A model generated the notes under the pieces. That model saw only the letters and a program-made list of their open reading frames with translations, did not search any database and was not told the origin of the DNA. Both the position numbers and the translations under genes were made by a program. A stretch of DNA of 29,430 nucleotides from a virus (lineage: Duplodnaviria > Heunggongvirae > Uroviricota > Caudoviricetes). This document shows positions 1 to 5,784 of this stretch, piece by piece. The stretch lies in the IMG/VR virus record IMGVR_UViG_2778261668_000002, one strand, 5' to 3'. Every line of letters begins with the position of its first letter. Position 1 is the first letter of the stretch.

Positions 1-981
1 TTATAACGTCACTCCGCCTTTTAGTGGATTCAGAGCGACGGCATTTTGCAGATAGTCAGGCGCAAGGTGCGCATAGGCCATCGTCTGCTGAATGCTCGCA
101 TGTCCCAGAATCTGTTGCAGTGCGATTATATTGCCCCCATTCATCATGAAATGGCTTGCGAATGTATGCCGCAGGATGTGGGTTGCCTGATTGGGTGGTA
201 TATCAGGTTTCACTCTGCGTAAAATCCCGCAAAATTTCTCATAATCAACTTTGAATAATTTGGCGCTGGCCTCCTCTTTAACTTTTTTCTCCAGTTCCTC
301 AGAAATCGGCACGGTTCGCTTTTTACCGTTTTTGGTTTTCAGGAAGGTAACCCTGCAATTTGTAATCTGTGCTGGTTTTAGCGTGGCAACTTCCGTCCAT
401 CTTCCTCCAGTGCTCAGACATAAAAGCGCGACAAGTAAGTCATCACCAGCCAAAACATTTAACAGTTTTTCGATTTCTGCTTTTTCCAGGAACGTCATTT
501 CAGGGTTGGCCTCCGCCAGTGGCGGCAGTCCGTGAATTGGGTGTTGCCCGGAAAATTCATCCAATTGAATTAATTTTGTGAACATGCCGGATAATCGGTA
601 CATGTCACGGTTTATCGTTGCGGCACTGATACCATCACGTAATCGCATGGAACGATAATCCATCAAAGCCCTTTTGCTCATCCTGCTCACTGGTATATCA
701 CCTATGCCGCTGATGGTTTTGAGTAGATGATTAAACTCTTTTGTTCCATGCTCGTGGTTTTGCCCGTGATATTTCCACCAGATGTCCAGCAACTCACTCA
801 AAGTCCGGCGGTCTGCTCGCTGGCCTCCCCATTCTTTCTGACTGGCATTGGCGATTGTGTATCGCTCAAATGCTAGTGCTTCAGCTTTTCTTTCGAATTT
901 CCTGCGGATGCGTTTTCCGTCGCGACCGCGAGGTCTAATGTCCACTTCATAGCGACCATCATCGAGCTTCTTAATTGCCAT
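1..981 (-). CDS. int: Tyrosine site-specific integrase (P2 Int family)
   Basis: Minus-strand ORF ending at position 1 with a C-terminal tyrosine-recombinase region (LRHTFASHFMMNGGNIIALQQILGH...MAYAH). Start placed at the ATG at 979-981 (MAIKKLDDGRYEV), which has a GGAGG Shine-Dalgarno 8 nt upstream; the track's longer ORF to 1011 has no ribosome-binding site. Confidence 0.9.
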   Translation of the reverse strand: MAIKKLDDGRYEVDIRPRGRDGKRIRRKFERKAEALAFERYTIANASQKEWGGQRADRRTLSELLDIWWKYHGQNHEHGTKEFNHLLKTISGIGDIPVSRMSKRALMDYRSMRLRDGISAATINRDMYRLSGMFTKLIQLDEFSGQHPIHGLPPLAEANPEMTFLEKAEIEKLLNVLAGDDLLVALLCLSTGGRWTEVATLKPAQITNCRVTFLKTKNGKKRTVPISEELEKKVKEEASAKLFKVDYEKFCGILRRVKPDIPPNQATHILRHTFASHFMMNGGNIIALQQILGHASIQQTMAYAHLAPDYLQNAVALNPLKGGVTL

Positions 982-1050
982 AAGAAAGCCCTCCGGCGCT
1001 GTATTCACCATCTTGGTAGCAAATGGTGAAAATGTAATCTTTATATAGAG

Positions 1051-1344
1051 TTAGCCAATCCTTTTCGCGGAGTGGTTGGACTCTGTTGACTCTGGCCCAA
1101 TGTGCGCGAGAGCCGGTGCGATTTGTCCTGCGTCCGGCGCGGTTTTATCTGTCATAAGCCATAGAGCATATTTTTGGAATGTGGGATGCATAGTGATTTT
1201 TAGCAAAGCTGTGCCACCGGGTTCAAAGTTTCCTCCTTCATATTTTTTAAGTGTGCTTAGCGGTAACTCTATGATTTCACAGAATTTTGATTGGCTTAGC
1301 CCTTCAGCCTCACGCAAGGCCTTAATCTTTTCGCTTAATTTCAT
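1051..1344 (-). CDS. C: Immunity repressor, P2 C-like HTH protein
   Basis: 97-aa minus-strand ORF divergent from cox, with an N-terminal helix-turn-helix (LSQSKFCEIIELPLSTLKKYEGG) and the P2 C-like motif QIAPALAHIGPE; it sits between int and cox. Confidence 0.8.
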   Translation of the reverse strand: MKLSEKIKALREAEGLSQSKFCEIIELPLSTLKKYEGGNFEPGGTALLKITMHPTFQKYALWLMTDKTAPDAGQIAPALAHIGPESTESNHSAKRIG

Positions 1345-1465
1345 TTGACATGGTGCCTATATAGGGACTAAATTCCCTCAAAACTGGAACCTATATAGGT
1401 TCCATTGATTTGAGAATAAACCAGCGTCTAAACGGTTTTGAGTGGTTTAGAAAGGGCTGGATCCT
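1345..1465. promoter_or_regulatory. Immunity switch region: candidate early promoter Pe, repressor promoter Pc and operator palindromes
   Basis: Perfect TTGACA at 1345-1350 on the + strand followed by an A/T-rich -10 candidate (TAAATT, 1369-1374); two copies of CCTATATAGG (1356-1365 and 1390-1399), the second inside the perfect 18-bp palindrome GGAACCTATATAGGTTCC (1386-1403); lies between the divergent C and cox genes. Confidence 0.5.
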
Positions 1466-3237: not shown

Positions 3238-3509
3238 GTATTCGTATTGAAATTGGCGAACGTTATGTCGTTACCAGTGACAGCTTTCAGTTTATTCTCC
3301 ACGAGAAAAAGAGAGCGGAAAGCGGTAAAAACGCCGGTCAGGAATGGCTGGCAGTGGTTGGTTATTACCCGAAATTAAGCCAGCTCGTTTCCGGCCTGAT
3401 GCATCACGATATTCTGACCGGAAGCGCAAAGTCTTTTGCTGATTTAAACGCGCAGGTTGAGCAACTCAGCAGGCGTTGTTCAGAGGCTTTTGGCTCATAT
3501 GGCCGTTAA
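3234..3509 (+). CDS. Early protein of unknown function (position of P2 orf83)
   Basis: 91-aa ORF with GGAG ribosome-binding site; overlaps the A start by 11 nt. Confidence 0.55.
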   Translation: MSIRIEIGERYVVTSDSFQFILHEKKRAESGKNAGQEWLAVVGYYPKLSQLVSGLMHHDILTGSAKSFADLNAQVEQLSRRCSEAFGSYGR

Positions 3510-5784
3510 AGCCTCCGGGCGTTTTGTCCCTCCGTCAGCATTTGCCGCAGGCACCGGTAAGGCGTTTACCGGTGCTTATGCATGGAACGCGCCACGCGAG
3601 GCCGTCGGGCGGGAAAGACCCCTTACACGTGACGAGATGCGTCAGGTGCAAGGTGTTTTATCCACGATTAACCGCCTGCCTTACTTTTTGCGCTCGCTGT
3701 TTACTTCACGCTATGACTACATCCGGCGCAATAAAAGCCCGGTGCACGGGTTTTATTTCCTCACATCCACTTTTCAGCGTCGTTTATGGCCGCGCATTGA
3801 GCGTGTGAATCAGCGCCATGAAATGAACACCGACGCGTCGTTGCTGTTTCTGGCAGAGCGCGACCAGTATGCGCGCCTGCCGGGGATGAATGACAAGGAG
3901 CTGAAAAAGTTTGCCGCCCGAATCTCATCGCAGCTTTTCATGATGTATGAGGAACTCTGCGATGCCTGGGTGGATGCGCATGGCGAAAAAGAATCGCTGT
4001 TTACGGATGAGGCGCAGGCTCACCTGTATGGTCATGTTGCTGGCGCTGCACGTGCTTTCAATATTTCCCCGCTTTACTGGAGAAAATACCGTAAAGGGCA
4101 GATGACCACGAGGCAGGCATATTCTGCCATTGCTCGCCTGTTTAACGATGAGTGGTGGATTAGTCAGCTTAAAGGCCAGCGTATGCGCTGGCATGAGGCG
4201 TTACTGATTGCTGTCGGGGAGGTCAATAAAGACCGTTCACCTTATGCCAGTAAACATGCCATTCGTGATGTGCGTGCGCGCCGCCAGGCAAATCTGGAAT
4301 TTCTTAAATCGTGTGACCTTGAAAACAGGGAAACCGGCGAGCGCATCGACCTTATCAGTAAGGTGATGGGCAGTATTTCTAATCCTGAAATTCGCCGGAT
4401 GGAGCTGATGAACACCATTGCCGGTATTGAGCGTTACGCCGCCTCAGAGGGTGATGTGGGGATGTTTATCACGCTTACCGCGCCGTCAAAGTATCACCCG
4501 ACACGTCAGGTTGGAAAAGGCGAAAATAAAACCGTCCAGCTTAATCACGGCTGGAATGATGAGGCATTTAATCCAAAGGATGCGCAGCGTTATCTCTGCC
4601 GTATCTGGAGCCTGATGCGCACGGCATTCAAGGATAATGATTTACAGGTCTACGGTTTGCGAGTCGTCGAGCCACACCACGACGGAACGCCGCACTGGCA
4701 TATGATGCTTTTTTGTAATCCACGCCAGCGTAACCAGATTATCGAAATCATGCGTCGCTATGCGCTCAAAGAGGATGGCGACGAAAGAGGAGCCGCGCGA
4801 AACCGTTTTCAGGCAAAACACCTTAACCGGGGCGGTGCTGCGGGATATATCGCGAAATACATTTCAAAAAATATCGACGGCTATGCACTGGATGGTCAGC
4901 TCGATAACGATACCGGCAGGCCGCTGAAAGACACTGCCGCGGCTGTTACCGCATGGGCGTCAACGTGGCGCATTCCGCAATTTAAAACGGTTGGCCTGCC
5001 GACAATGGGGGCTTACCGTGAACTACGCAAATTGCCTCGCGGCGTCAGCATTGCTGATGAGTTTGACGAGCGCGTCGAGGCTGCACGCGCCGCCGCAGAC
5101 AGTGGCGATTTTGCGTTGTATATCAGCGCGCAGGGTGGGGCAAATGTCCCGCGCGATTGTCAGACTGTCAGGGTCGCCCGTAGCCCGTCGGATGACGTTA
5201 ACGAGTACGAGGAAGAAGTCGAGAGAGTGGTCGGCATTTACGCGCCGCATCTCGGCGCGCGTCATATTCATATCACCAGAACGACGGACTGGCGCATTGT
5301 GCCGAAAGTTCCGGTCGTTGAGCCTTTGACTTTAAAAAGCGGCATCGCCGCGCCTCGGAGTCCTGTCAATAACTGTGGAAAGCTCACTGGTGGTGATACT
5401 TCGTTACCGGCTCCCACACCTTCTGAGCACGCCGCCGCAGTGCTTAATCTGGTTGATGACGGTGTTATCGAATGGAATGACCCGGAGGTCGTGAGGGCGC
5501 TCAGGGGCGCATTAAAACACGACCTGAGAACACCAAACCGTCAGCAAAGAAGCGGAAGCCCGTTAAAAGCGCATGAAATAGCGCCATCGGCCAGACTGAC
5601 CCGGTCGGAACGAATGCAAATTACCCGTATCCGCGTTGACCTTGCTCAGAACGGTATCAGGCCGCAGCGATGGGAGCTTGAGGCGCTGGTGCGTGGCGCG
5701 ACCGTAAATTATGACGGGAAAAAATTCACGTATCCGGTCGCTGATGAGTGGCCGGGATTCTCAACAGTAATGGAGTGGACATGA
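3499..5784 (+). CDS. A: Rolling-circle replication initiator endonuclease (P2 gpA family)
   Basis: 761-aa product from the ATG at 3499 (MAVKASGRF...; the track's ORF starts at an upstream TTG). Contains a metal-binding HxH motif (EPHHDGTPHWHMMLF) and a catalytic-tyrosine motif (GYIAKYISKNIDGY) typical of rolling-circle Rep proteins. Confidence 0.9.
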   Translation: MAVKASGRFVPPSAFAAGTGKAFTGAYAWNAPREAVGRERPLTRDEMRQVQGVLSTINRLPYFLRSLFTSRYDYIRRNKSPVHGFYFLTSTFQRRLWPRIERVNQRHEMNTDASLLFLAERDQYARLPGMNDKELKKFAARISSQLFMMYEELCDAWVDAHGEKESLFTDEAQAHLYGHVAGAARAFNISPLYWRKYRKGQMTTRQAYSAIARLFNDEWWISQLKGQRMRWHEALLIAVGEVNKDRSPYASKHAIRDVRARRQANLEFLKSCDLENRETGERIDLISKVMGSISNPEIRRMELMNTIAGIERYAASEGDVGMFITLTAPSKYHPTRQVGKGENKTVQLNHGWNDEAFNPKDAQRYLCRIWSLMRTAFKDNDLQVYGLRVVEPHHDGTPHWHMMLFCNPRQRNQIIEIMRRYALKEDGDERGAARNRFQAKHLNRGGAAGYIAKYISKNIDGYALDGQLDNDTGRPLKDTAAAVTAWASTWRIPQFKTVGLPTMGAYRELRKLPRGVSIADEFDERVEAARAAADSGDFALYISAQGGANVPRDCQTVRVARSPSDDVNEYEEEVERVVGIYAPHLGARHIHITRTTDWRIVPKVPVVEPLTLKSGIAAPRSPVNNCGKLTGGDTSLPAPTPSEHAAAVLNLVDDGVIEWNDPEVVRALRGALKHDLRTPNRQQRSGSPLKAHEIAPSARLTRSERMQITRIRVDLAQNGIRPQRWELEALVRGATVNYDGKKFTYPVADEWPGFSTVMEWT

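Follow-up and report, generated by a model that had tools for sequence, protein, structure and literature searches.

The early region of this virus raises the question of which DNA sites keep its early promoter, Pe, silent, and which protein reads them. The stretch analysed here (hereafter the window) comprises 29,430 nt, of which positions 900-2100 were read directly for the switch region. Open reading frames place int (1-1011, minus strand) and the gene for the C immunity repressor (1051-1344, minus strand) leftward, and cox (1481-1753), B (1923-2423) and A (3457-5784), all on the plus strand, rightward, and the annotation of Yersinia phage L-413C has the same ORFs. Judged by this gene order, the early region is of P2 type. 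The C protein, a 97-aa helix-turn-helix protein, matches the P2 C structures 2XCJ/2L49 over residues 3-97, that is, as a full-length match (E=1.9e-21), as well as Pfam HTH_3, and its recognition helix is proposed to include LPLSTLKKYEGG. It is 100% identical to L-413C gpC, 55.7% identical to WPhi C and 43% identical to P2 C. The first gene of the early operon, cox, encodes a member of the Cox family of repressors/excisionases (PF10743, E=1.2e-23). Its start is given as ATG 1466 (95 aa) in the L-413C record and as 1481 (90 aa) in the PGAP annotation and the R18C record; the alignment to WPhi Cox favours ATG 1481 too, which is most likely the start rather than 1466.

Within an immunity class, C proteins are at least 95% identical (PMC3448106). 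Given an identical C protein and a C-cox spacer that is the same as that of L-413C save for three base differences, the prophage is assigned to the L-413C immunity class. Over its 801 bp, the switch shows 100% identity with Peduovirus P24B2 and 99.5% with L-413C, and the 81-bp core (1340-1420) was found in 420 of 5426 complete E. coli genomes (~8%), with an exact match in 314. Membership in the WPhi immunity class (class III) was rejected, the half-site being CCTATATAGG and not TATTGGTGAC and the two C proteins sharing the 55.7% identity given above, as was a 186-type CI/Apl/CII switch, which has a two-domain CI of ~190 aa, cII and distal operators; C here has 97 aa, and the 10-mer CCTATATAGG is absent elsewhere in the window. 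What was found instead is the gene order, the C and Cox proteins, a Pe promoter at the C start codon and two half-sites bracketing a Pe hexamer, as in a P2-type (Peduovirus) switch. We consider it very likely that a P2-type (Peduovirus) prophage of the L-413C class has its Pe/operator/Pc switch in this region, a switch in which C bound at two sites, O1 and O2, would repress Pe.

The early promoter, its palindromic sites and a candidate Pc

The C start codon reads CAT on the plus strand (1342-1344) and is abutted by a perfect TTGACA at 1345-1350, just as an earlier annotation made from the letters of the window (the sequence-only reading) had stated. A promoter scan returned a single site on the plus strand, TTGACA-18 nt-TAAATT (1345-1374), which agrees with the consensus at 10 of 12 positions. 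Its -35 hexamer (1345-1350) lies in the same place as in the annotated Pe promoters of WPhi and P2, and its -10 hexamer (1369-1374) aligns with the TATATT of WPhi. By homology to WPhi, whose promoter feature ends 6 nt after the -10 hexamer, the Pe transcript would start at ~1379-1381. The arrangement of CAT and then TTGACA, either abutting or with a 1-base overlap, recurs in nearly all C classes examined.

Two copies of the 10-mer CCTATATAGG, itself a perfect palindrome, lie where the sequence-only reading had put them, one in the Pe spacer (1356-1365) and one just past the start site (1390-1399). That reading had also described the operators as overlapping the -35 hexamer, which does not hold: the 10-mer of O1 begins 5 nt after this hexamer and the 16-bp dyad around it 2 nt after, and it is the -10 hexamer that is flanked by both sites. 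O1 is the 16-bp dyad GTGCCTATATAGGGAC (1353-1368, ~-27 to -12 of Pe), which has one mismatched pair (7/8 pairs match) and sits at the offset of WPhi O1. O2 is the 16-bp dyad GAACCTATATAGGTTC (1387-1402, ~+8 to +23 of Pe), which sits at the offset of WPhi O2; neither site is assigned a strand. Centre to centre, the two are 34 bp apart, and both fit G-NN-CCTATATAGG-NN-C. O2 lies inside a palindrome for which a length of 18 bp (1386-1403) had been claimed; the palindrome is indeed perfect, and its true length is 20 bp (TGGAACCTATATAGGTTCCA, 1385-1404).

No further copies of CCTATATAGG with up to one mismatch were found in the 29.4-kb window, where 0.24 such matches are expected and 2 of 100 shuffles reach two. 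Simulations put the expectation for one window at ~0.07 palindromes of at least 20 bp and at ~2 exact 10-mers with a second copy within 60 nt. This makes the repeat by itself unremarkable, and the weight is carried by its position and by the comparative data. Another inverted repeat, AGGGA-N6-TCCCT at 1363-1378, had been described as a second, imperfect palindrome. It is present, both of its arms being perfectly complementary, in a region that is rich in 5-bp inverted repeats owing to the operator palindromes. An operator role for it was rejected: neither WPhi nor the sister CCTATATAGG classes have it, and its right arm is polymorphic in prophages (1374, 1375). The repeat is probably incidental, a by-product of O1 together with the conserved ATTCCC that follows the -10 hexamer.

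On the minus strand, no promoter was returned by the consensus scan, and Pc is placed by homology alone. The candidate is of the extended -10 type, TGgTACCCT (1477 to 1469, minus strand), and corresponds to the annotated WPhi Pc; the region of GGGCTGGATC and GAGGGTACC in the window aligns with the -10 and start region of WPhi Pc, the -35 hexamer of which sits in a 34-nt segment absent from the window. Most classes examined have TGnTAnnCT and then GATC in this position as well (read by eye). The proposed Pc -10 overlaps the cox ribosome-binding site. From this placement, the Pc transcript would start at ~1462-1464 and overlap the Pe transcript by ~84 nt, and convergent transcription is forced by the contact of the C start codon with the Pe -35 hexamer. 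The putative leader of the C (Pc) transcript (1420-1463, minus strand) is conserved across different C classes and aligns with WPhi; it contains the inverted repeat TCTAAAC (1427-1433)/GTTTAGA (1445-1451) together with the conserved GGGCTGGATC. The block from 1420 to 1477 may hold the extended -10 of Pc, the C leader and a Cox-binding/regulatory region.

In the mechanism that we propose, a strong Pe (TTGACA, 18 nt, TAAATT; start ~1380) would fire rightward into cox, B and A, and a weak leftward Pc near 1469-1477 would supply the 97-aa helix-turn-helix C protein. Dimers of C would bind the two dyad-symmetric sites (1353-1368 and 1387-1402), one in the Pe spacer and the other just past the start, 34 bp apart, so that the -10 hexamer is bracketed. 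With both sites occupied, RNA polymerase would be blocked at Pe, lysogeny would be kept and superinfection immunity conferred. We infer C binding, its stoichiometry, both transcript starts and the Pc assignment. In each site, the CC/GG bases are found on both sides of the dyad centre at a distance of 3.5-4.5 bp. In the P2 C dimer, the two recognition helices are separated by ~26 Å (PMC2995052), which corresponds to ~7.6 bp and places each helix ~3.8 bp from the dyad centre. The position of the CC/GG bases fits this spacing, which makes one symmetric dimer per site the natural reading.

Lytic isolates, prophage alleles and repressor lineages

P2-like C proteins have been described as recognising two direct repeats, and the operators known by 2007 were those of P2, P2 Hy dis and WPhi only (PMC1904268). 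In WPhi, the half-sites are 10 bp long, lie 34 bp apart centre to centre and flank the Pe -10 hexamer (PMC1904268), and the half-site sequence is TATTGGTGAC (PMC1904263). These C sites were demonstrated by mutagenesis, gel shift and surface plasmon resonance; repression in vivo requires both half-sites, and mutating both abolishes it (PMC1904268, PMC1904263). When the window was aligned with WPhi (GenBank AJ245959, where Pe is annotated at 1757-1793 and Pc at complement 1875-1911), the two 10-mers fell on WPhi O1 and O2 with the same 34-bp spacing. The sequence-only reading had suggested a comparison with operator repeats of other P2-like phages as a check; for WPhi, both half-site position and spacing agree.

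Two lytic isolates bear on the function of these sites. L-413C is a clear-plaque mutant of the temperate phage L-413 (PMC3448106). Over 801 bp, it differs from the window at four bases, and its C protein is identical: 1356 C>A changes the first base of the O1 10-mer, 1402 C>A changes the outer C of the O2 16-bp dyad, 1373 T>C changes the fifth base of the -10 hexamer, and the remaining difference (1632) is in cox. The change at 1373 is also present in a sampled E. coli prophage and is therefore probably a polymorphism. The publication on R18C presents a P2-like phage that is virulent/lytic, its virulence being left unexplained; lytic growth was shown, and lysogeny was not assayed (PMC6823313). 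Across 881 bp of R18C, exactly two positions depart from the window, both in the operators, namely 1364 G>T (O1, +3.5 from the dyad centre) and 1390 C>T (O2, -4.5). Three of the four operator substitutions hit the CC/GG bases 3.5-4.5 bp from the dyad centre; the relevance of 1402 is read from the G..C shared at ±7.5 in the class and from the L-413C change itself, and the flanks beyond the 10-mer are not conserved across other classes. One substitution per site in each lytic isolate is the pattern that WPhi genetics predicts for lost repression.

The changes at 1356, 1364, 1390 and 1402 occur in none of the 420 E. coli genomes with the core, and a search of the L-413C and R18C 81-mers against E. 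coli genomes gave the wild type as the best match (96.3% and 97.5%, respectively). Among IMG/VR copies chosen by the C protein alone, the sole change in a 10-mer was that of the R18C record itself. Double operator substitutions in the presence of an intact C gene probably explain both the virulence of R18C and the clear plaques of L-413C. Yersinia phage HQ103, of the same class, has intact operators and a 7-nt deletion in C (1179-1185) that truncates the repressor, which is a different route to lytic growth. About a quarter of the E. coli carriers (106/420) differ from the window within the 81-bp core. The three variants sampled (T1374C; T1373C with T1374C; C1375T) fall on the end of the Pe -10 hexamer or on the next base, and T1374C removes the conserved last T of TAAATT; variants at 1373-1375 may represent promoter-down, 'grounded' prophages.

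Repressor and repeat were also found to vary together. A scan of IMG/VR for CCTATATAGG-N(14-40)-CCTATATAGG yielded 51 loci, 46 of which adjoin the start of a C homologue. Among the latter, 34 are of the window's class and 12 have divergent C proteins (47-62% identical, 78-97 aa), where the exact pair occurs with gaps of 14, 15, 21 or 22 nt and the first site starts 3-5 nt after TTGACA in all. The helix motif S-T-x-x-K-Y-E is common to all C proteins at pair loci. A second sample was chosen by protein similarity only, with named phages added. Two CC[CT]A[AT][AT]T[AG]GG sites within 90 nt upstream of C were present in 15/15 lineages with S-T-x-x-K-Y-E and in 0/21 lineages without it, where lineages are counted regardless of shared ancestry and part of the sample had been picked by the DNA motif itself; among those picked independently of it, 7/7 S-T-x-x-K-Y-E lineages have two sites. 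The SINTLKKYE lineage, in which S is changed to N, has GTACATATGTAC. Other dyads or repeats occur in the STLKNYE, STLKKLE and STLKKIE lineages, and yet others in the SSYKKYE lineages (Pseudomonas phage BIBS67, Pseudoalteromonas phage C5a). Moreover, a near-identical Pc/cox block is shared by loci L228 and L250, which are of the CCTATATAGG type, by L241, which has GTGAC direct repeats, and by L247, which has GTTC-N7-GAAC. As the same block accompanies different repeats, the repeats follow C and not Cox.

Taken together, the two CCTATATAGG palindromes are very probably C repressor-binding sites. An immunity switch with repressor sites on the early promoter and with Pe and Pc face to face, the central proposal of the sequence-only reading, is supported by WPhi homology, by the natural mutants and by co-variation. 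Its further suggestion that the operator would define the immunity specificity of this particular prophage has to be given up as far as uniqueness is concerned: C homologues that share only 47-86% identity with the window C use CCTATATAGG too, either unchanged or altered at 1-2 positions.

A pattern scan of bacterial genomes was dominated by unrelated repeats and yielded little host-range information, with a C homologue at 3 of at least 120 loci among the matches listed. Pairs of CCTATATAGG in promoter-like contexts were seen at L074 (Pectobacterium), L106 (Chromohalobacter), L125 (Gilvimarinus) and L149 (Halomonas), and also at L082 and L123 (both Tetragenococcus) and L174; no C homologue was detected near these pairs, which may be used by other regulators or be chance matches. 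A further locus, L171 (2233-2838), encodes a C homologue (73% identical) with CCTATATAGG sites 19 nt apart, and a second, more distant C-like ORF (43% identical) directly after the first.

A predicted stem-loop around O2 and alternative explanations

An extended inverted repeat lies at 1377-1414 on the plus strand, with O2 at its centre and the outer arms CTCAAA/TTTGAG. This hairpin begins at about the Pe start site, and its predicted RNA dG is -16.4, compared with -6.0 ± 2.1 in shuffles (z -5.0). In nearly every sister class (L002 and L226-L250 were examined), a hairpin runs from about the Pe start and encloses O2, the stems of which differ but are complementary, as in TCAAAAGG/CCTTTTGA, CCCTCATTGG/CCAATGAGGG, TCCCTAAC/GTTAGGGA and TCAACTGGTTC/GAACCAGTTGA. 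Loop lengths are too different for reliable automatic alignment, and a comparison of matched with cross-class arms was used: leaving aside the central 10 nt, pairing reaches 10.6 of 14 positions in matched arms, compared with 8.0 ± 1.3 in cross-class arms. The outer stems are unlikely to be repressor contacts, since O1 is without such arms. The segment is most likely a 5' stem-loop on the early transcript.

A scan had flagged an intrinsic terminator at 1385-1404, which was rejected, its T-rich tail TTGATTTGAG pairing with CTCAAA as the outer stem. No U-tract follows the hairpin in the sister classes, and an Rfam search of 1200-1700 returned one chance-level match only and no family. A WPhi construct that ended right after O2, and was without the 3' arm, the other phage flanks and Pc, showed ~100-fold more reporter activity, a difference left unexplained (PMC1904263), and to which the hairpin may relate.

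These observations invite an explanation at the level of RNA only, by which the O2 palindrome and its arms would act as a 5' stem-loop (in stability, pausing or attenuation), with a complementary hairpin in the C leader, and repressor binding would be secondary or located elsewhere. The terminator-like scan flags at 1385-1404, the folding energy, the hairpins that enclose O2 with kept arm complementarity in nearly all sister classes, and the higher expression of the WPhi construct without 3' arm and flanking phage DNA (PMC1904263) are all in line with it. Nonetheless, we judge it improbable, as O1 has the same 10-mer yet lies outside the early transcript and outside any extended hairpin, and the WPhi half-sites are non-palindromic yet proven operators. 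The lytic isolates, too, are changed once per 10-mer/dyad and do not have paired or outer-arm changes that would disrupt the stem, the 10-mer co-varies with the recognition helix of C, and there is neither a conserved U-tract nor an Rfam family match. A dual role of O2, as operator core and as part of the hairpin, is quite possible.

Co-variation with C also bears on whether the repeats might bind Cox, the lytic repressor/excisionase, or another host or phage factor, in place of C. Cox acts in the Pe-Pc region of P2-like phages, and in 1999 Liu and Haggard-Ljungquist reportedly called its recognition sequence in WPhi 'not evident', which leaves room for such a role; however, essentially the same Cox and Pc block occurs with quite different repeats, the repeats track the C class, the sites bracket the -10 hexamer of Pe and not Pc, and the homologous WPhi positions are C sites demonstrated by mutagenesis, gel shift and surface plasmon resonance. 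Binding of Cox or another factor at these repeats is, in our view, very improbable. Finally, it is hardly credible that the repeats arose by chance in an AT-rich promoter region and have no specific function. An exact 10-mer repeated at short distance is indeed expected about twice per window, but a palindrome of at least 20 bp is not (~0.07), the exact pair recurs at several spacings beside C homologues that are 47-62% identical, 46 of the 51 IMG/VR loci adjoin the C start, and the four operator changes are seen in 0/420 prophage copies, the lytic isolates being mutated precisely there. Comparative data effectively refute the chance reading. Repression of Pe by C at O1 and O2 is the reading that we prefer.

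Symmetric sites and comparison with known switches

P2 C is a symmetric dimer that resembles palindrome binders, yet recognises non-palindromic direct repeats, and all seven immunity classes seem to use direct repeats (PMC2995052). Operators of this kind were considered for the window and rejected, since the 10-mer and O2 are perfect palindromes and O1 matches at 7/8 pairs. Partial dyad symmetry can also be read in other members of the family: WPhi O1 (GTAACCTATTGGTGAC) matches at 6/8 pairs, and phiT5282H O1 reads GGTAG-N6-CTACC (our own reading). An inverted half-site orientation was observed at L003/L233, the class of phage P37 (TTAATGAC-N16-GTCATTAA), and also at L236, neither of which fits the family description of 'direct repeats'. 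As a lead, one dimer per site with varying symmetry would fit these classes.

A broader reading combines a dyad-binding dimer unit, a code linking S-T-x-x-K-Y-E to CCTATATAGG, cross-immunity, double operator mutants and a dual-role O2; we put it forward tentatively, with doubt slightly outweighing belief. If it is true, the basic unit of the P2 C family would be one symmetric dimer on one dyad-symmetric site, and P2 and WPhi, with their 'non-palindromic direct repeats', would have degenerate versions of it. S-T-x-x-K-Y-E and CCTATATAGG would then form a recognition code shared by repressors 47-86% identical at spacings of 24-34 bp, and cross-immunity would be predicted between phages now placed in different immunity classes. 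R18C and L-413C would be lytic because each is a double operator mutant, and O2 would have a second role, at the core of a conserved 5' hairpin in the early transcript.

The string CCTATATAGG was not found in the phage literature searched, a body of work to which Karlsson et al. 2006 and Garcia et al. 2008 did not belong. What appears to be new here is the support for the operators from two natural lytic mutants, the pairing of recognition helix and operator, the palindromic sites and the conserved hairpin. Operators would be assigned to one of the commonest P2-like immunity classes, given its presence in ~8% of complete E. coli genomes, and the lytic growth of R18C and of the plague-diagnostic phage L-413C would have a simple molecular explanation despite an intact repressor. 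The window may also provide a natural palindromic operator for the question that the P2 C crystal structure left, namely how DNA is recognised by a symmetric C dimer. None of these points alters what is established about the P2-type switch.

Among the closest known systems are L-413C, P24B2 and R18C, which belong to the same immunity class, with a 100% identical C and 801-bp switches that are 99.5-100% identical; L-413C and R18C differ in having one substitution per operator dyad, whereas the window has the consensus prophage alleles. L-413C also shares the attachment-site core of WPhi (PMC3448106). WPhi itself has the same gene order, CAT directly followed by TTGACA, 10-bp half-sites at the same offsets from the -35 hexamer, an alignable spacer (ATTCCC, then TCAAAA), an inverted repeat around O2, and GGATC and TGnTACCCT conserved where its Pc is annotated. 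It differs in its half-site, TATTGGTGAC rather than CCTATATAGG, in a C protein of 55.7% identity, in the 34-nt segment carrying the Pc -35, absent here, and in the symmetry of its sites, O1 being weakly dyad-symmetric and O2 hardly at all by our own reading, whereas both sites of the window are palindromes.

Similarly, P2 has a homologous repressor of ~100 aa that forms a symmetric dimer (2XCJ), two sites that bracket the Pe -10 hexamer, Pe and Pc face to face, as proposed for the window, and a Pe -35 hexamer at the C start codon. Its half-sites, however, are 8-bp non-palindromic direct repeats (GTTTAGAT) 22 bp apart, in contrast to the palindromic sites here. Palindromes are read by proteins to which P2 C is structurally similar: C.Esp1396I, which binds directly repeated palindromes with one dimer per repeat, and the P22 c2 / 434-type repressors (PMC2995052). 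Like the dimer proposed here, these are small helix-turn-helix dimers on palindromic sites; unlike P2 and WPhi, they are not homologous switches, and the resemblance would be one of binding mode alone. The kind of switch described here is already known, and it is the symmetry of its sites that sets it apart from the asymmetric direct repeats described for its relatives.
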